From Candidatus Latescibacterota bacterium (lineage in GTDB: Bacteria > Latescibacterota > UBA2968), in the NCBI GenBank assembly GCA_965204375.1, contig OZ241986.1:5152001-5216000 (forward strand): DNA of 64,000 nucleotides, given 5' to 3'. How positions within the stretch are numbered: position 1 is the first letter of the stretch; each line of letters begins with the position of its first letter. The position numbers were made by a program, and so were the translations under genes. Under the pieces are notes generated by a model. The model saw only the letters and a program-made list of their open reading frames with translations. It had not been told where the DNA came from and did not search any database. Below are positions 16,332-64,000 of the stretch, one piece after another.

Positions 16332-17306
16332 CTACGCGCGGGACGCGCCCAGGGTTTCGAGGACTTGCTTGGGAATTTTGCAAACAAAAGTATAAGCGGG
16401 ATCGTACATATTGCCCATATCGTATTCGACCGCCTCCCCCAGCAACACATGCACGGTGCGCTCATCCAACCCAAAATCAGACACGAGCCAGCGGATCATT
16501 TCAGTGGTCGCGTGTTCCACACACTGATCGAGTGGACGGGCATTGCCCACCGTAAAAATATGCGTCTCGTTTTCACCCCGCGGCCAGTTAATCGTTTTGC
16601 CCTTGTGCAGATGAACCGTAAAACGGACATCAAAAGAAATTTCAATACCCGTACCCACAATTTCACCATCGCCCTGAAGCGCGTGCCCATCGCCAATGTG
16701 AAAAAGCGCGCCCTCGACAAAAACTGGCAAATAAACCGTCGTGCCCTCGTTAAAACGCTTGTAATCCATATTCCCGCCGTGCGTGGATGACGTCGCTGTC
16801 GAAATCGCCTGCCCCCGCGGCGGCGCAACCCCAAAACATCCGGGATGCGGATTGAGCGGCAAAACCAGATCGCTTAACGGACGGGTAGCGGGACTGCCAT
16901 AACCGGGCGTGGTATGGTCGCGGTTGCGAGAAACCTCTACCGGGCGTGCCGTGCGATTTTCAAAATCGATCGCCCATAAAACCCGCGAAATGTCATCCTC
17001 AAACTTGGGCACATAACCCGGATCGAGCACATTGGGCGCAACGCGCGCAGACGTATAGCCATGCGAGCGATTGGGCATCAGGTGATCAAACACAACCGAA
17101 ATCGAATCCCCCGGCTCTGCACCCTCAATATAAAAAGGACCCGTCTGGGGATTGCCACCCTCGGTCACTTGCTCGCCCGTCATATCCCTGCCACCCGCAC
17201 AAACCGTCGTCGTCGAAAGCGTATCACCACTTGCAATGGTAAGGACAGGTTCGTGTGATCCGATGGTCGTGTGATAATGCGTGGGGGTAAAGTTATGATG
17301 TGCCAT
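16332..17306 (-). CDS. Acetamidase/formamidase family protein
   Basis: TGPFYIEGAEPGD, HGGNMD, IGDGHALQGDGE. Confidence 0.92.
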   Translation of the reverse strand: MAHHNFTPTHYHTTIGSHEPVLTIASGDTLSTTTVCAGGRDMTGEQVTEGGNPQTGPFYIEGAEPGDSISVVFDHLMPNRSHGYTSARVAPNVLDPGYVPKFEDDISRVLWAIDFENRTARPVEVSRNRDHTTPGYGSPATRPLSDLVLPLNPHPGCFGVAPPRGQAISTATSSTHGGNMDYKRFNEGTTVYLPVFVEGALFHIGDGHALQGDGEIVGTGIEISFDVRFTVHLHKGKTINWPRGENETHIFTVGNARPLDQCVEHATTEMIRWLVSDFGLDERTVHVLLGEAVEYDMGNMYDPAYTFVCKIPKQVLETLGASRA

Positions 17307-53630: not shown

Positions 53631-53640
53631 AGATCCTCCT

Positions 53641-53747
53641 GTGAAGTGTGAAGTGTGAAGTAGGAAGTGTGAAGTGTGAAATGGGATGAAGCACCAGCCT
53701 TTGGGCGGTTGGGCGGGGCCTTCTTACTTCTCACTTCTTACTTCTCC
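53641..53747 (-). repeat. Dispersed heptamer-armed hairpin element, copy 3 (inverted)
   Basis: Minus strand reads (GAAGTAA/GAAGTGA)n-GAAGGCCCCGCCCAACCGCCCAAAGGCTGG-(CACTTCA)n. Confidence 0.75.
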
Positions 53748-58382: not shown

Positions 58383-58679
58383 TCACACAATCACATAGTC
58401 CTCGCGTTTTGGCACGGGGTGTTCGCGTTCGGAAATGCCTTCTATCCGCTTTTCGCATGCAGCACATAGATGATAATAACAGATGCGATCATCTTCCGGG
58501 TCAATCAGTTCCGACATTTTGGACCGCAACGCGAGAAATCGACTTTCATTTAAGTTACACTCAAAAACGCTTTTCTGCCGCCGCGATCCATAATTTTCCA
58601 TGAGTTTCATTACCCGCCGCAATCGGCGTTTGTCGGCAATATCGTAGGCTACTACTACAAGCATCGCGCTGGTCTCCAA
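58383..58679 (-). CDS. cas2: CRISPR-associated endoribonuclease Cas2
   Basis: VVAYDI.D.RR, GSRRQKSVFEC, D.ICYY.LC..C; follows cas1. Confidence 0.95.
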   Translation of the reverse strand: METSAMLVVVAYDIADKRRLRRVMKLMENYGSRRQKSVFECNLNESRFLALRSKMSELIDPEDDRICYYHLCAACEKRIEGISEREHPVPKREDYVIV

Positions 58680-58682
58680 AAA

Positions 58683-59684
58683 TTATCGAATTAAGAATGG
58701 CAGGTATGCCGTGTCTTCGCCGCGCAATAGGCGGATGAGACGACGGGCCTGGAACTCAAAGCATTGGCGATATGACACTTTTTGTACCTGTCCACCGGGT
58801 TGCAGATATTGGACTTCAACAGCGACGCGATCTTGATAGGCACGAATTAACTGCGTCCGTCCATCGCCACATAAGAACACACCCCCGTCGCGCTGTTCAA
58901 AGTCTTCCTTTTTTATTTGTCCGTGATTCAGCAAGTCCAGTACCATTGCATCTACAATCACTGGGCGAAATTCTTCCATCATGTCCAGCGCGAGCGAGGG
59001 GCGGCCGTAATCTACGAGATGCAGATAACCGATATAGGGGTCCAAGCCCACGCGCAAGACAGCCGATTCCAGGTCCGAAGATAGGAGCGTATAGCCAAAG
59101 CTCAACATGGCGTTGACTGCATCTTTGGGTGGGCGGCGCGTGCGTTTGACAAAGGGAAATGCAGTGGGTAAAAATTGACCGAGCGCACCGAAATAGGTCG
59201 CGGTTGCAGCACCTTCGATTCCGCGCAGGGCATCGGCATTGTCAGCGCGGTCTATCTGTTTTAAGAGTGCGCGCAGTCGCCGTGCGGTGTGGGCGATGTC
59301 TCGATTTCGGCGTCGGGCAAGGCGCATGATCAGGGTGCGCATGTTGCGGATTTTGCCCGATACAAATCCCCGTGCGGCACCCAGTCGAAACGCTTCGTCT
59401 TCGTAGCGACGGTATTGCATTTGCCGCAGAATCACATTGCGGCCCTGCGGTCCGACCAGTCGCCCGCGATAACTGCCCGTGGTGCTGAGGAGTACGAGGT
59501 CAATGCCCTGCATTAGCGCGGTGTGCATGGCCGCAGGTGTTATTCCGATGTTGCCAAATAAGACCATCTGGTGCAGATCATACGCGGGTGATGTGTGGAG
59601 TTTTTTTTTGCCTTTCCACACGGTTAATCGCTCGCCTTCACGGCGTACCTGTGCGCCGGTTTCTGTGACATAGAGTACGGACAC
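58683..59684 (-). CDS. cas1: CRISPR-associated integrase Cas1
   Basis: LYVTETGA, GIEG.A...YF, NAMLSFGY, GYLH..DYGRPSLALDMMEEFRP. Likely GTG start at 59684. Confidence 0.97.
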   Translation of the reverse strand: MSVLYVTETGAQVRREGERLTVWKGKKKLHTSPAYDLHQMVLFGNIGITPAAMHTALMQGIDLVLLSTTGSYRGRLVGPQGRNVILRQMQYRRYEDEAFRLGAARGFVSGKIRNMRTLIMRLARRRNRDIAHTARRLRALLKQIDRADNADALRGIEGAATATYFGALGQFLPTAFPFVKRTRRPPKDAVNAMLSFGYTLLSSDLESAVLRVGLDPYIGYLHLVDYGRPSLALDMMEEFRPVIVDAMVLDLLNHGQIKKEDFEQRDGGVFLCGDGRTQLIRAYQDRVAVEVQYLQPGGQVQKVSYRQCFEFQARRLIRLLRGEDTAYLPFLIR

Positions 59685-59685
59685 T

Positions 59686-61611
59686 TCACACCACCTCAAC
59701 GCCTATTTGCAACCGTCCCGCGTCATCCGCTGTTACAACCCAAACGCCTGTGGTGATTTTGCCTTTGCGGTCGCGCAATAAGTCGCGCATTTCATCTTCT
59801 GCACGCGATAGGTCGGCCATGACCTGTGCGGCTTGCTGGCGCAGTGCGACGTAACGATCTATAGCTTCGCGGTTTTGCGGTTGATCCACACGTCCCATGC
59901 CGGCTGTAAATGCCGGGTCGATATGTAGCAGAGGAGAGGGGTACCCGCCTTCGGGCAAGTCAAATTCGCAGTTGCAGGGGACGGTTTCGACGAGGTCGGG
60001 CAGGTGTTTGCGGATTTTTGGACAGCCAATGGGATTCGGATGCAGGCGTTCGATCTGATAATCGGTTACTTCGGCTTTGTAATCTGCACACGCGCCGATT
60101 ACTGCGTGTAAAAAAGCGCGTCCCTGGTCGTCGAGATGTCCGAATACGCATTTTAAGACGTGGCGTTCGATGTGTACCAGATGGGCGGTTGTATAGGCTT
60201 TTTCTGTGAGTGCGCGAATGACGGCGCATCCCTTCATGATGGGTTGATATTCTGGAAAGGCTTTTTCTAAATCGACTTTTTGCAGGGGTGTGTGGGGTTT
60301 CCCTCCGCCCAGGCGAGAAACTGCATGGTCAAATGCCTGTGTGTCTATGGGTTTGATGTCGCGCAAGACGCGGTCCTGGTCTGCGAGTGCGTGTCCTTCT
60401 GTGTCGATAAATAGCGCACGTCGTCCTGTTTTGCGGTGGATGCCCAGGGGGAGTTTGATCAAATTGCCGAGTTCATCTTCTCCAACGGTGTCTTGTTTGG
60501 GAAACCATTCCCACTGCAATTCCTCTGATGGCGGTCCAAATCGCTTTGCAAATGCGCGACCATAAGCACGCAGGTCACATGCGGGGATGGGTTTTTCAAA
60601 GAAGAGCCATATATGCGCCCCTTTGTTTCCGCTGTCTTCGATGTGGACGGGGAGGTTGAGGGATGCAAAGCCAGCGCATACCCGTCGGATGTCTTTGCAT
60701 ACTTGTTCGCGCAACGCATCCATTAAGGTGTTGTTTTGCAGTGCTTTGTTGAGGGTCTCTTTTTTTATGTCGATGTCCAGGGCTAAAAATTGCGCTTTGT
60801 CCAGGTCGAATATCGGATATACCCCCACAGTCGTGTCTCCGCGGAGGTGGGATTGGATCACGCCCTCTGTGAGGGGTTCGCGCACGGGGACATAGCCGGT
60901 TTTTCCGTCTTCATCAATCCATTGCCGAGCGTACACGTCTTTGCGCGCGGTGAATAGCCGCAAGATGTGTGCGGCAGTATCAGGTTGGTTTTTGATTTCT
61001 GCATCTGGCAAGGTCTGGGATGTTTGCAACTGCGCGCCGACGAGTTGTTTGCCCGCAAGTGCGCCTGCATGGTCCGGGTCGTGCTCAAGTACTCGTCCGT
61101 AGAGTTCTTGCGCGAGGCCCATCATGCCATCTTCTTCGTATAGATGCGCGAGTTCAAAGAGTCCTTCTATGTGATCTGCATGATGCTGAATGAGGGTTTG
61201 CAAGCGCGATTGCGCGAGGCCCGTTTCATTGCGGTCTGCGTGTAACATTGCCAGTCCAAATAGGGATTTGGCATCGTCAGGGCACTGAGATAGGTGCGCC
61301 TGATAGATTTCAACGGCTGACTGGATGTCGTTCAGTTCTTCTGCGAGTACACCCCATTCACCAAACGCATCATCTACTGGTAGATCGCGCCACCGATTGA
61401 GCAATGTCTGTGCTCTGTCCTGTTCGCCCCGGATGAGGGCTATGCGGACCATCAATTGATGTGCGCGATTGCATGCCGGATCGCGCGCACAGGCTTCCGA
61501 AGCCAATGCCTCCACGCCATCCACGTTGTTTTGTTCTAAAAGTACCTGTGCTTTTTCACAGAGGGTATCCACGAGAGATGTGGGGGACGATTCTATTGCA
61601 GGAGTTGTCAT
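59686..61611 (-). CDS. CRISPR-associated primase-polymerase (CAPP): TPR repeats, AEP domain, Cys-rich C-terminal domain
   Basis: N-terminal TPRs; AEP motifs LDID and SGNKGAH; FPKQD..GNLIKLPLG; Cys-rich C-terminal domain; directly upstream of cas1-cas2. Confidence 0.88.
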   Translation of the reverse strand: MTTPAIESSPTSLVDTLCEKAQVLLEQNNVDGVEALASEACARDPACNRAHQLMVRIALIRGEQDRAQTLLNRWRDLPVDDAFGEWGVLAEELNDIQSAVEIYQAHLSQCPDDAKSLFGLAMLHADRNETGLAQSRLQTLIQHHADHIEGLFELAHLYEEDGMMGLAQELYGRVLEHDPDHAGALAGKQLVGAQLQTSQTLPDAEIKNQPDTAAHILRLFTARKDVYARQWIDEDGKTGYVPVREPLTEGVIQSHLRGDTTVGVYPIFDLDKAQFLALDIDIKKETLNKALQNNTLMDALREQVCKDIRRVCAGFASLNLPVHIEDSGNKGAHIWLFFEKPIPACDLRAYGRAFAKRFGPPSEELQWEWFPKQDTVGEDELGNLIKLPLGIHRKTGRRALFIDTEGHALADQDRVLRDIKPIDTQAFDHAVSRLGGGKPHTPLQKVDLEKAFPEYQPIMKGCAVIRALTEKAYTTAHLVHIERHVLKCVFGHLDDQGRAFLHAVIGACADYKAEVTDYQIERLHPNPIGCPKIRKHLPDLVETVPCNCEFDLPEGGYPSPLLHIDPAFTAGMGRVDQPQNREAIDRYVALRQQAAQVMADLSRAEDEMRDLLRDRKGKITTGVWVVTADDAGRLQIGVEVV

Positions 61612-61713
61612 GGGGAGATTCCTTTCTGTTTGGGGAAAAATAATGCAATCACACTGGGGTTTGTCTGTGGATTGCGTTTACACATTTTTTAGCAGTTTTA
61701 ATTTTTTCTTCAA

Positions 61714-61742
61714 AAATTAGTGCTCAAATGTTCACTTGTCAA
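61714..61742 (-). promoter_or_regulatory. Sigma-70 promoter for CAPP-cas1-cas2
   Basis: TTGACA-17 bp-TAATTT on the minus strand, about 100 bp upstream of CAPP. Confidence 0.65.
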
Positions 61743-61750
61743 GATAAAAA

Positions 61751-61774
61751 AGTAAACGGGTAGTCCCTCCTGAT
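61751..61774 (-). CRISPR. Partial degenerate CRISPR repeat
   Basis: AGTAAACGGGTAGTCCCTCCTGAT versus consensus AGTAGTCGGGTAATCCTTCCTGAT (20/24). Confidence 0.7.
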
Positions 61775-61780
61775 TGTTTC

Positions 61781-61948
61781 TTAGCCTCCAATGAACGCTT
61801 TAGCGATTGACCACAATACCACAATAGCCATGATATGCGGTATGTGTATAATCAGCGCAAAAATTACGGCGAACACGAATATACACAACACCACTATATC
61901 TACCAATAAACGGACAATGAGATCTGCTGTGTTATTGGGCTCTTTCAT
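61781..61948 (-). CDS. 55-aa two-helix membrane protein occupying a CRISPR spacer position (not in the ORF track)
   Basis: Manual translation: MKEPNNTADLIVRLLVDIVVLCIFVFAVIFALIIHIPHIMAIVVLWSIAKAFIGG*. The ATG directly follows the repeat end ATTGAAAC; GAGG lies 9 nt upstream. Confidence 0.65.
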   Translation of the reverse strand: MKEPNNTADLIVRLLVDIVVLCIFVFAVIFALIIHIPHIMAIVVLWSIAKAFIGG

Positions 61949-61985
61949 GTTTCAATGCCTCAGTAGTCGGGTAATCCTTTCTGAC
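61949..61985 (-). CRISPR. Isolated full-length degenerate CRISPR repeat (4 substitutions)
   Basis: GTTTCAATGCCTCAGTAGTCGGGTAATCCTTTCTGAC versus the array consensus (33/37). Confidence 0.9.
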
Positions 61986-62001
61986 GAACGCCCTATTTAT
62001 C

Positions 62002-62018
62002 TGCAAGAAGCGTGCCAA
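62002..62018 (-). promoter_or_regulatory. Sigma-54 (-24/-12) promoter firing into the isolated repeat
   Basis: TTGGCACGCTTCTTGCA fits YTGGCACG-N4-TTGCW; predicted start near 61991. Confidence 0.75.
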
Positions 62019-62124
62019 AAAATAAAAAATCCTCAAAAAAATGAGGATTTTCTTTTTTTATTCTTTTTTCGCGGTTTTTTTTGTAAAAAAATCCCAAACA
62101 GGCATTCACCAGAGGGGAACAGAC

Positions 62125-62158
62125 GTGCAGAAATGCTCACATTTGTGCAAAAATGCAC
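62125..62158. promoter_or_regulatory. Tandem palindromes, candidate enhancer (bEBP binding sites)
   Basis: GTGCAGAAATGCTC (62125) and GTGCAAAAATGCAC (62145), 20 bp apart and about 110-140 bp upstream of the -24 box. Confidence 0.5.
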
Positions 62159-62169
62159 GCCTATGCACA

Positions 62170-63996
62170 GTTTCAATACCCCAGTAGTCGGGTAATCCTT
62201 CCTGATTATCATCGACTCATACATCGCAGAGACCGCACCTTCAGGGTTTCAATACCCCAGTAGTCGGGTAATCCTTCCTGATAAACCAAAGCAGGATAAA
62301 AATGACGCCTGAAGATTTTAGTTTCAATACCCCAGTAGTCGGGTAATCCTTCCTGATGTGAGAAATTCCCTGTCAGAATTATTGATAGTTGTAAACCTAA
62401 TCGTTTCAATACCCCAGTAGTCGGGTAATCCTTCCTGATGACGACGGTTCAATGGAAGTCGATTCACCTTGCATGTTTTACAGTTTCAATACCCCAGTAG
62501 TCGGGTAATCCTTCCTGATGAATGGTCATATCAGTCATCGTAATACTTCCAATTTAGAAGTGTTTCAATACCCCAGTAGTCGGGTAATCCTTCCTGATTC
62601 AATTCACCAGAGACTTTAGGCTTATTTTACAAGATTCGTTCGTTTCAATACCCCAGTAGTCGGGTAATCCTTCCTGATCGTTGCAGAATTTGAGTTGGAA
62701 GTAGTGAAGGACATGTATGTTTCAATACCCCAGTAGTCGGGTAATCCTTCCTGATAGTTTTAGACCACGATTGGAAAGACCATCGCGTAAGACCAGTTTC
62801 AATACCCCAGTAGTCGGGTAATCCTTCCTGATCGGCACGAATTTGAGTGTCGTTGATTTGGGAAAGGAATTGTTTCAATACCCCAGTAGTCGGGTAATCC
62901 TTCCTGATCTTATGCTGCGATTAGGGCAATTCACGCTGGCCTTGATGATATGTTTCAATACCCCAGTAGTCGGGTAATCCTTCCTGATCAGATGCAAAAG
63001 CTCGCAGCAGCATACGCATTTGATCCGTTTCAATACCCCAGTAGTCGGGTAATCCTTCCTGATCACCAATTACAAAGGAGGTGTAAAATGGCAGTGATGA
63101 GGTTGGGTTTCAATACCCCAGTAGTCGGGTAATCCTTCCTGATCTGCCGAAACCATTGTTGGCTTGGGTTGCACGACGTTGCTGACGTTTCAATACCCCA
63201 GTAGTCGGGTAATCCTTCCTGATGAGGTTGCTATTCGTGTTGGGCAGCGGGTCAATGAGGAAATGTTTCAATACCCCAGTAGTCGGGTAATCCTTCCTGA
63301 TTGATCATTCAGGACTTACGATCAATACCACAGGATTTTTGTTTCAATACCCCAGTAGTCGGGTAATCCTTCCTGATGCAGGACGCAAAAGAAATTGAGT
63401 ACGCGTATCCCATATAGTTTCAATACCCCAGTAGTCGGGTAATCCTTCCTGATTGGCATGTGGTCTCCTTGTGCGGGAAATTTTGAGCAATCTGGTTTCA
63501 ATACCCCAGTAGTCGGGTAATCCTTCCTGATTTTGCAGTTCCGCATCTGCATTTTCCAACTCACATCAAGTTTCAATACCCCAGTAGTCGGGTAATCCTT
63601 CCTGATCAATTACCAATGAAAAGTAAATCAAAAGTAACATATGATAAGTTTCAATACCCCAGTAGTCGGGTAATCCTTCCTGATAATTGAAACTGTCATC
63701 CCGGCCGTGAAGAAGCGTAAGTAGTTTCAATACCCCAGTAGTCGGGTAATCCTTCCTGATTTGACCTTCCCGCCGAAGTGATTGACCTGTTTCGCGTTAT
63801 TGAAACGTTTCAATACCCCAGTAGTCGGGTAATCCTTCCTGATGACTCTCAGATGGCAACTATAGATCGGCTGTATGCTGGTTTCAATACCCCAGTAGTC
63901 GGGTAATCCTTCCTGATCTCAATCCGAATCGGACAGCTACTCGCACGCGCGAAAAAGATGTTTCAATACCCCAGTAGTCGGGTAATCCTTCCTGAT
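62170..63996 (-). CRISPR. CRISPR array: 24 identical 37-bp repeats and 23 spacers of 37-46 bp, probably continuing beyond the window
   Basis: Plus-strand repeat GTTTCAATACCCCAGTAGTCGGGTAATCCTTCCTGAT. The minus strand ends in the canonical ATTGAAAC handle, so minus orientation is inferred. Confidence 0.98.
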
Positions 63997-64000
63997 ATAC

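Follow-up and report, generated by a model that had tools for sequence, protein, structure and literature searches.

In CreTA modules, a pair of CRISPR repeats encodes a guide RNA of normal size, which represses a separate toxin promoter via a DNA-binding effector of type I or V. CRISPR-associated primase-polymerases (CAPP) are fused to, or encoded adjacent to, cas1-cas2. Here we analysed a locus related to both, which lies in a stretch of 64,000 nucleotides from a Candidatus Latescibacterota bacterium (assembly GCA_965204375.1, contig OZ241986.1, positions 5,152,001 to 5,216,000; the whole stretch is called the window). In this locus, a hydrophobic open reading frame (ORF) of 55 codons, ORF55, is placed between two degenerate repeats, R1 and R2', at the end of a type III-D CRISPR array and beside the genes for CAPP, Cas1 and Cas2. 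With a probability of about 0.5, we read this cassette as relics of the array's trailer which now belong to the leader of an inducible transcript of CAPP, cas1 and cas2 and which carry a young ORF without detectable selection.

With CreTA and CreR, the locus has in common that decayed repeats adjoin cas genes, and that a toxin is supposed to respond to the state of the CRISPR system. Unlike in CreTA, the supposed toxin frame itself is located between the repeats and the system is of type III. The DNA between the repeats (174 nt) is not a guide of the CreTA kind; elsewhere in the genome it matches over 17 nt at most, and no partial self-target turned up. Likewise, the effector genes (Csx10, Csx19, Csx7-type RAMPs and Cas10) are those of a type III-D system and not of type I, or of type V-A as for CreR. 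As in known CAPP systems, the gene for the AEP primase-polymerase immediately precedes cas1-cas2 within a type III locus, and the only new feature of CAPP here would be its predicted sigma-54 control.

Several other described systems can be compared with the locus. Mini-arrays were reported near the arrays of 10-14% of type III systems, and these type III mini-arrays were judged to be degraded and non-functional and to lack positional conservation, the spacers of mini-arrays being defined as 15-60 bp (Shmakov et al. 2023, 10.1101/2023.03.03.530964). Our cassette resembles them in that its repeat-like sequences are found near the array and outside the cas operon, and no target was found for its "spacer". 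It differs from them in that its filler of 174 bp exceeds that definition, so it would be uncounted there, and in that at least one repeat is found at the same place behind a sigma-54 promoter in four of five sister loci. The toxins of type I toxin-antitoxin (TA) modules located by the arrays of Clostridium difficile are conserved across strains and have a lysine-rich C-terminus, and antisense RNAs have been mapped for these modules (PMC5961336). There too, a hydrophobic ORF of 50-55 aa is found right beside an array, but ORF55 is located between repeat relics and has no lysine-rich C-terminus.

On the regulatory side, RtcR combines a CARF domain, a sigma-54 AAA+ domain and a helix-turn-helix (HTH) domain, and the RtcR-like family was not CRISPR-linked in a 2014 survey (PMC4012209). 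The activator encoded in our locus has the same three-part architecture; unlike RtcR, it carries a sensor of the CARF5/Cas_NE0113 type, as in type III ancillary proteins, and is located inside the III-D locus, with cas6, the DUF1232 gene and CAPP-cas1-cas2 as its predicted regulon. A CARF sensor is coupled to transcription also in Csa3, which regulates CRISPR and adaptation genes (PMC8844856). In our literature search, we found no paper presenting a CARF-sigma-54 activator within a type III regulon and no paper on a coding frame between CRISPR repeats; either could already be in print.

Results

Repeats and reading frame of the cassette

On the minus strand, the array is followed by 184 nt of non-repeat sequence, R1, ORF55, GAAACA, R2', a T run, CAPP, cas1 and cas2. 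The features of the cassette are as follows.

61985-61949, minus strand: R1, degenerate repeat, 33 of 37 bases identical to the array repeat
61948-61781, minus strand: ORF55 (P0001), 55 codons and TAA, encoding an orphan hydrophobic peptide
61789-61776, minus strand: repeat-like remnant which closes the filler (its last 14 nt), 10 of 13 bases like the 3' end of R1
61774-61751, minus strand: R2', partial repeat fused to the T run, 20 of 24 bases matching the 5' part of the repeat

The repeat-ORF-repeat anatomy described in the initial annotation was thus found as stated. The ATG of ORF55 abuts R1 without a gap, the frame covers 168 bp out of the 174 bp that separate R1 and R2', and only GAAACA (6 bp) is found between its TAA and R2'. 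By identity, strand and adjacency to the array, both R1 and R2' belong to the repeat family. The 174-nt filler does not have the length of a spacer, since it falls outside the range of the array (37-46 nt in the window part, as the initial annotation had it, and 34-48 nt across all 76 repeats).

As repeats, both relics are damaged. The consensus repeat folds into a 5-bp hairpin with a predicted energy of -7.3 kcal/mol, and R1 pairs differently, at -3.5 kcal/mol: its 3' arm is changed at two positions, two of the five stem pairs are lost, and the fold of the consensus is not predicted for it any more. R2' consists of the 5' 24 nt only; the 3' 13 nt of the repeat, with the handle and half of the hairpin, are missing. 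A stem-loop followed by an 8-nt handle is therefore found in neither of them, although R1 still ends in ATTGAAAC. R2' is nearer to the variant of the repeat at the boundary between the trailer-side and the leader-side copies. The stop codon of ORF55 falls within the repeat-like remnant at 61789-61776; the chance of such a remnant at a fixed place was estimated at about 1e-4, for a similarity that was spotted post hoc. We place R1 and R2' at the trailer end because the true leader sits at the far end of the array, beside the cas genes. Their interpretation as decayed repeats from the trailer of the type III-D array is part of the leader and proto-gene reading given above and shares its probability.

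The predicted sigma-54 promoter module and its proposed activator

The sequence between the array and R1 contains a compact promoter module, and a further promoter-like element is found before CAPP.

62158-62145, minus strand: upstream activator-type site, GTGCATTTTTGCAC
62141-62126, minus strand: second upstream activator-type site, a near-copy of the first
62024-62053, both strands: terminator-like hairpin (10-12 pairs) in an A/T-rich stretch, with an A run on one side and a T run on the other
62017-62002, minus strand: sigma-54 promoter with the -24/-12 element TGGCACGCTTCTTGCA, a perfect TGGCACG-N4-TTGCA
61742-61714, minus strand: sigma-70-like element (TTGACA, 17 nt, TAATTT) before CAPP, kept in 6 of 6 aligned loci

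With the customary 12-nt distance from promoter to start, transcription is predicted to begin near 61991, 6 nt ahead of R1, which is the position that the initial annotation had guessed for an RNA start. The strict sigma-54 motif occurs at 23 sites in the genome compared with 1.5 expected, and three of these sites are within the CRISPR locus, where they share the strand of the cas genes and precede the cassette, the DUF1232 gene and cas6. The consensus spacing of -24 GG and -12 GC, together with an rpoN gene in the genome (413 bits, cut-off 277), marks the element as a predicted sigma-54 promoter. The inverted repeat GTGCA-N4-TGCAC is found eight times in 6.34 Mb. Four of the eight precede the three sigma-54 promoters of the locus by 100-170 nt, and each of the four is paired with a near-copy about 21 nt away. 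The two sites in front of the cassette are conserved in four sister species, and the sites shared by the three promoters recur in sister loci.

The activator, a protein of 565 aa, is composed of Cas_NE0113 CARF, Sigma54_activat, AAA lid and HTH_8 domains. Its AAA+ domain for interaction with sigma-54 (PF00158, E 1.6e-51) has a Walker A motif, and the C-terminal HTH is present as well. Using the CARF models of PADLOC, the sensor was assigned to CARF5, and only the AAA+-HTH part matches RtcR/PspF-like models. In public data, this architecture is represented by a family of more than 100 protein clusters, all of them unnamed. The order of activator, sigma-54 motif and cas6 was found in all five sister loci compared; the DUF1232 gene comes next in four of the five, and in three of those four it has its own sigma-54 motif. 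In 8 of 60 relatives, the activator's CARF domain was detected by a match that covers residues 1-224 or more, and seven of these relatives also carry a close CAPP orthologue (77-94% identity); in the eighth, G008, the activator is present and the CAPP orthologue search gave no match. Judged from this arrangement of motifs and domains, the three promoters probably form the regulon of the CARF-sigma-54 activator, which would bind a ligand and activate them.

The hairpin is conserved in G020, G016, G013 and G018 and has no substitution in the conspecific strains X4 and X6, and it is likely to be the end of the array transcript. A search of 61300-62400 against Rfam gave seven weak matches, every one under the gathering score and all on this hairpin. 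The sigma-70-like element before CAPP was not called by our promoter scan since its -10 is weak. The 184-nt promoter module (61986-62169) exactly fills the spacer position between the last perfect repeat and R1.

Hints of transcription were obtained from contigs of one RNA library, which carry no strand information and are treated as weak. In the coral metatranscriptome from the sample of X6 (run X15), a 431-nt contig extends from the interior of CAPP over the promoter region of this gene and over R2' as far as 61811, where it ends, inside the 3' end of ORF55, in Illumina adapter sequence. If this contig represents RNA and not carried-over DNA, it is a weak hint that transcription crosses R2' into CAPP, which the preferred reading requires, and 61811 may be a defined RNA fragment end. 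No convincing promoter or Cas6-type processing motif was found at 61811. A second contig joins the true leader of the array to a consensus repeat. The first 137 nt of ORF55 are covered by no RNA contig; such contigs show presence, not absence.

The same position in sister species

The region from the promoter module to CAPP was aligned in five congeners (G013, G015, G016, G018 and G020). The module is about 86-89% identical in four of the five and is preceded by a repeat in all four sister species that possess it. The module followed by one or more repeats ahead of CAPP is found in four of the five sister loci. What is present between the promoter module and the CAPP promoter varies as follows.

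G013 and G016: one degenerate repeat only
G018: a near-perfect repeat, a 39-nt spacer and a degenerate repeat
G020 and G015: a repeat, 103 nt and a repeat
G000 (source genome): R1, 174 nt and R2'

At least one repeat relic is therefore positionally conserved behind the promoter, and the content after the relic is variable. The 103-nt filler (L012:1714-1816 in G020; L016 in G015) is mostly a structured repetitive element resembling repetitive extragenic palindromes or miniature inverted-repeat transposable elements (REP/MITE-like). It has at least 28 matches per genome in 15 of the 18 congeners searched, and it is also found in G000. The 174-bp filler of G000 is single-copy in its own genome, where other matches are chance words of at most 17 nt, and it was found in none of 30 other genomes of the family. 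When the pattern of the sigma-54 promoter was searched in metagenomes, all 15 loci obtained were unrelated sigma-54 promoters from other organisms, and none of the 15 had a downstream repeat.

Two further comparisons were set aside. An ATG at the repeat junction was considered as a shared coding feature, but the frames of G020 (24 codons) and G015 (18 codons) are in another register. G057 is uninformative on this position, its array being located downstream of cas2 and a CARF gene upstream of the orthologous CAPP.

Properties and homologues of ORF55

ORF55 is very hydrophobic, as the initial annotation had stated, with a grand average of hydropathy (GRAVY) of 1.67 and a peak of 3.3 in a 19-residue window. 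The two helices it had predicted were not recovered: hydropathy is unbroken from residue 10 to about 52 save for His-Ile-Pro-His at 35-38, and the AlphaFold single-sequence model is a single helix of residues 4-54 (predicted local distance difference test score 90.6), a model which says little since single-sequence models favour helices for hydrophobic peptides. In size (55 aa, below 60) and in its hydrophobic transmembrane stretch, the peptide matches type I toxins. The filler has 41% G+C compared with about 51% in the genome, and ORF55 begins at the first AUG after the predicted sigma-54 start site.

No relative of the peptide was found. Searched among 5.77 billion proteins, and with phmmer against 1.84 billion representatives, ORF55 matched itself only, and the best match in 60 relatives (E 0.054) was hydrophobic noise. 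Pattern searches gave 439 matches in JGI metagenome contigs and 32 in IMG/VR, of which none was confirmed in either; PHROGs and PADLOC gave no match, and the ESM Atlas no usable match. The filler DNA had no match in phages or plasmids. ORF55 gave no domain match above cut-off in Pfam and none in PHROGs or PADLOC, and thus no sensor like the CARF or SAVED domains that are fused to transmembrane helices in membrane effectors activated by cyclic oligoadenylate. The Pfam family Chordopox_L2 scored 19.1 bits against a cut-off of 27, and this was taken as compositional. The language-model recognition score of ORF55 is 1821, and 91 in 100 known-family proteins reach 2300.

Strain variation was available from the metagenomes of other studies. 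Contigs of strains X4 (sponge) and X6 (coral) span the full 610-nt stretch at about 96% identity, and run X5 covers only 61901-62051, with no differences at a depth of 2. Within ORF55, X4 and X6 show seven nonsynonymous and three synonymous changes, that is, a ratio of nonsynonymous to synonymous changes per site (pN/pS) of 0.70 (127 and 38 sites). This ratio is near that of neutral change. By a binomial estimate from the ten substitutions, strong constraint (an omega of 0.2) is roughly a fifth as likely as neutrality. The initial annotation had proposed to look for homologues or a conserved frame in relatives; no homologue was found in other species, and the frame is kept in the two conspecific strains, with pN/pS near 0.7.

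Weighing the preferred reading

In the reading we prefer, binding of target RNA would lead Cas10 (GGDD) to make cyclic oligoadenylate, and the CARF5-type sensor fused to the sigma-54 AAA+ activator would bind the paired GTGCA-N4-TGCAC sites. The activator would then open three sigma-54 promoters, those of cas6, of the DUF1232 gene, and of the cassette with the adaptation genes. The transcript starting 6 nt upstream of R1 would read through into CAPP-cas1-cas2. The 174 bp would be a young, species-specific insertion in an insertion-tolerant slot. ORF55, as the first AUG, looks translatable, and a small hydrophobic peptide may well be made from it; the frame would be a proto-gene and not a conserved, Cas6-guarded toxin.

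Several observations weigh against this reading, most of them by making ORF55 look like a real gene. R1 contributes a GAGG sequence 9 nt upstream of the ATG, a spacing suitable for translation, and in this respect the suggestion that the repeat serves as the 5' untranslated region of the frame was borne out. Among 20,000 first-order Markov sequences of the same composition and a length of 174 nt, 3.3% contained a sense ORF of at least 55 codons, and only 0.4% did so with the ATG in the first 3 nt; the test was made post hoc. The codon-frame score is 5.07 nats, which corresponds to the 29th percentile among windows of real genes; 0.4% of the 3,261 small ORFs that are surely spurious attain it, as do 16% of the 669 small ORFs from regions free of long ORFs. 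In X4 and X6, the frame is intact and free of indels, while the flanks have three; six of the seven amino-acid changes are conservative, and divergence is 3-4% in ORF55 compared with 12-13% at 62054-62120. Gene callers reported ORF55 in two assemblies, the X4 form being P0123 in the protein collection. With ten substitutions, an omega of about 0.5 is indistinguishable from neutrality. On the regulatory side, the loop of the activator reads GAFTNA, one residue off GAFTGA. Taking these points together with the strain data, we consider it possible, at somewhat less than even odds, that ORF55 is translated and under a selected function.

Alternative explanations

In the likeliest of the alternatives, ORF55 is a functional membrane peptide. 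It would be the first cistron of the CARF-sigma-54 output, would perturb the membrane in a holin-like or type-I-toxin-like manner, and would slow the infected cell as a transcriptionally deployed type III effector acquired recently in the species. Its place as first AUG of the predicted transcript behind GAGG, the improbable length and ATG position, the gene-like codon usage, the hydropathy and helical model and the frame kept intact in three strains are all in keeping with this, and the same predicted regulon includes another small membrane protein, DUF1232. However, the peptide is an orphan that is absent from sister species with the same regulon, its pN/pS and recognition score are not those expected of an established protein, it has neither a sensor domain nor a charged tail, and the RNA contigs, which show presence and not absence, leave its first 137 nt uncovered. 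We therefore hold this explanation to be rather unlikely, and its fullest form, in which the newborn ORF55 as first cistron of a CARF5-sigma-54 transcriptional output encodes an inducible, membrane-active dormancy peptide, to be clearly more doubtful still. The origin of the frame may also be sought in the adaptation genes that adjoin it. About 158 nt of foreign coding DNA could have been taken up as an oversize "spacer" in an aberrant integration by CAPP, Cas1 and Cas2 that duplicated only the 3' part of the repeat, ORF55 being a captured gene or a piece of one. The resemblance of the last 14 nt of the filler to the 3' end of R1, directly before R2', would be explained in this way, as would the low G+C content and the gene-like codon frame. 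Searches of phages, plasmids, viral contigs, metagenome contigs and protein collections gave no source, though, and the other fillers of the slot are ordinary repetitive elements. We know of no spacers of this size, and such a capture seems improbable to us. The more general alternative of the initial annotation, a captured sequence which uses the repeat as its 5' untranslated region, is plausible and fits better than a toxin or guard module.

That module had been the first proposal for the cassette: a cut by Cas6 in R1, 8 nt before the ATG, would remove the ribosome-binding site, and loss or inhibition of Cas6 would free the toxin. A cas6 gene is indeed present in the locus, as the proposal supposed, and has a sigma-54 promoter of its own; canonical cleavage of R1 would strip GAGG from the frame. 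But R1 has lost two of five stem pairs and its consensus hairpin is not predicted, R2' lacks the 3' half of the repeat, and the arrangement is not conserved beyond one species, the five sister species having an unrelated filler or none. In addition, CreTA guards use DNA-binding type I or V effectors and the system here is type III. The Cas6-guarded toxin is thus not supported, and we give it very little credence. Hardly more credence is given to a type I TA-like pair, in which an antisense RNA running from a promoter-like site within ORF55 to the two-way hairpin at 62026-62051 would repress the ORF55 mRNA. The site is the following.

61825-61852, plus strand: antisense promoter-like site in ORF55 (TAGCCA, 16 nt, TATAAT), a 10/12 consensus match only

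Along with this match, a terminator-like site on the plus strand and a hydrophobic peptide below 60 aa agree with such a pair, and pairs of this kind have a precedent beside the arrays of Clostridium difficile (PMC5961336). Against it, the evidence consists of consensus matches only, and the scan gave four promoter-like sites compared with 2.5 in shuffled sequences. The hairpin is part of a module conserved in species that have no ORF55, the lysine-rich C-terminal tail is absent, and one strain alters the -35 (61829).

The array and the surrounding type III-D locus

The remaining features of the window that adjoin the cassette are the array and the adaptation genes, whose identity and adjacency to the cassette, as given in the initial annotation, were supported by Pfam matches.

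62170-64000 (window part), minus strand: trailer-proximal part of the type III-D CRISPR array, with repeats ending in ATTGAAAC
59686-61611, minus strand: CAPP, 641 aa, N-terminal TPR repeats and AEP primase-polymerase (PF22548, E 1.4e-45)
58683-59699, minus strand: cas1 (PF01867, E 1.5e-101)
58383-58679, minus strand: cas2 (PF09827, E 2.2e-24)

On the scale of the window, the whole array runs over 62170-67961 with 76 repeats of 37 nt, and the crRNA (CRISPR RNA) strand is minus. Its leader is located at 67962-68265 on the same scale and is conserved, being found also ahead of the first repeat in G057 and G008; the array of G008 decays toward the end opposite its leader. Two repeat variants are present in the array, 31 trailer-side copies with ...GACTAC... 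and 45 leader-side copies with ...GCTTAC..., and five leader-side copies near the variant boundary carry a third change. CAPP orthologues in seven relatives are 77-93% identical to it. A second CAPP paralogue, 42% identical, is encoded outside the window at G000:C1:3942277-3944154 and has orthologues in five congeners.

Upstream of the array and on the same strand, the type III-D locus encodes two CARF proteins, of which one is Csx14/Crn1-like, together with several Csx7-type RAMPs, Csx19, Csx10, Cas10 with GGDD, an IS5 transposase, a 116-aa DUF1232 protein, Cas6 (PF10040) and the CARF-sigma-54 activator. The DUF1232 gene (79947-80297 on the scale of the window, L009:15947-16297, minus strand; PF06803; PHROG 14750, E 2e-39) comes first after the second sigma-54 promoter and is 82-87% identical in four of the five sister loci; its product may be a membrane component of the type III regulon. 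The gene for the IS5-family transposase (78989-79855, L009:14989-15855, minus strand) is located between the DUF1232 gene and cas10. With this placement, the effector operon is separated from the sigma-54 promoter at 80376, to which the type III-D effector genes may no longer be coupled in this strain.

Conservation differs strongly within the locus. Between congeners, identity is about 83-93% for Cas6, for DUF1232, for the activator, for the array repeat and for CAPP, and 26-31% for Cas10 and a RAMP; across the compared sister loci, Cas6 is 88-92% identical while Cas10 is about 26% identical. From these identities, the effector module seems to have been swapped, and the regulatory, processing and adaptation modules seem to have been retained. 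Short tandem repeats of a GTGAAG type with a 14-nt period were also observed at 53640-53691 of the window, after a sulfatase gene, and a related GAAGTGTGAAG motif is found at the end of cas6 (L009, about 16530-16560).

Conclusion

If ORF55 is a passenger, the cassette is a curiosity, in which decayed trailer repeats have trapped insertions. The context of the locus matters more. To our knowledge, infection sensing that boosts processing or adaptation via transcription is known only for Csa3-type regulators, and the predicted regulon described here would make it directly testable that type III sensing raises crRNA processing and adaptation by transcription in bacteria. In addition, the cassette provides a natural case of possible gene birth within CRISPR debris.

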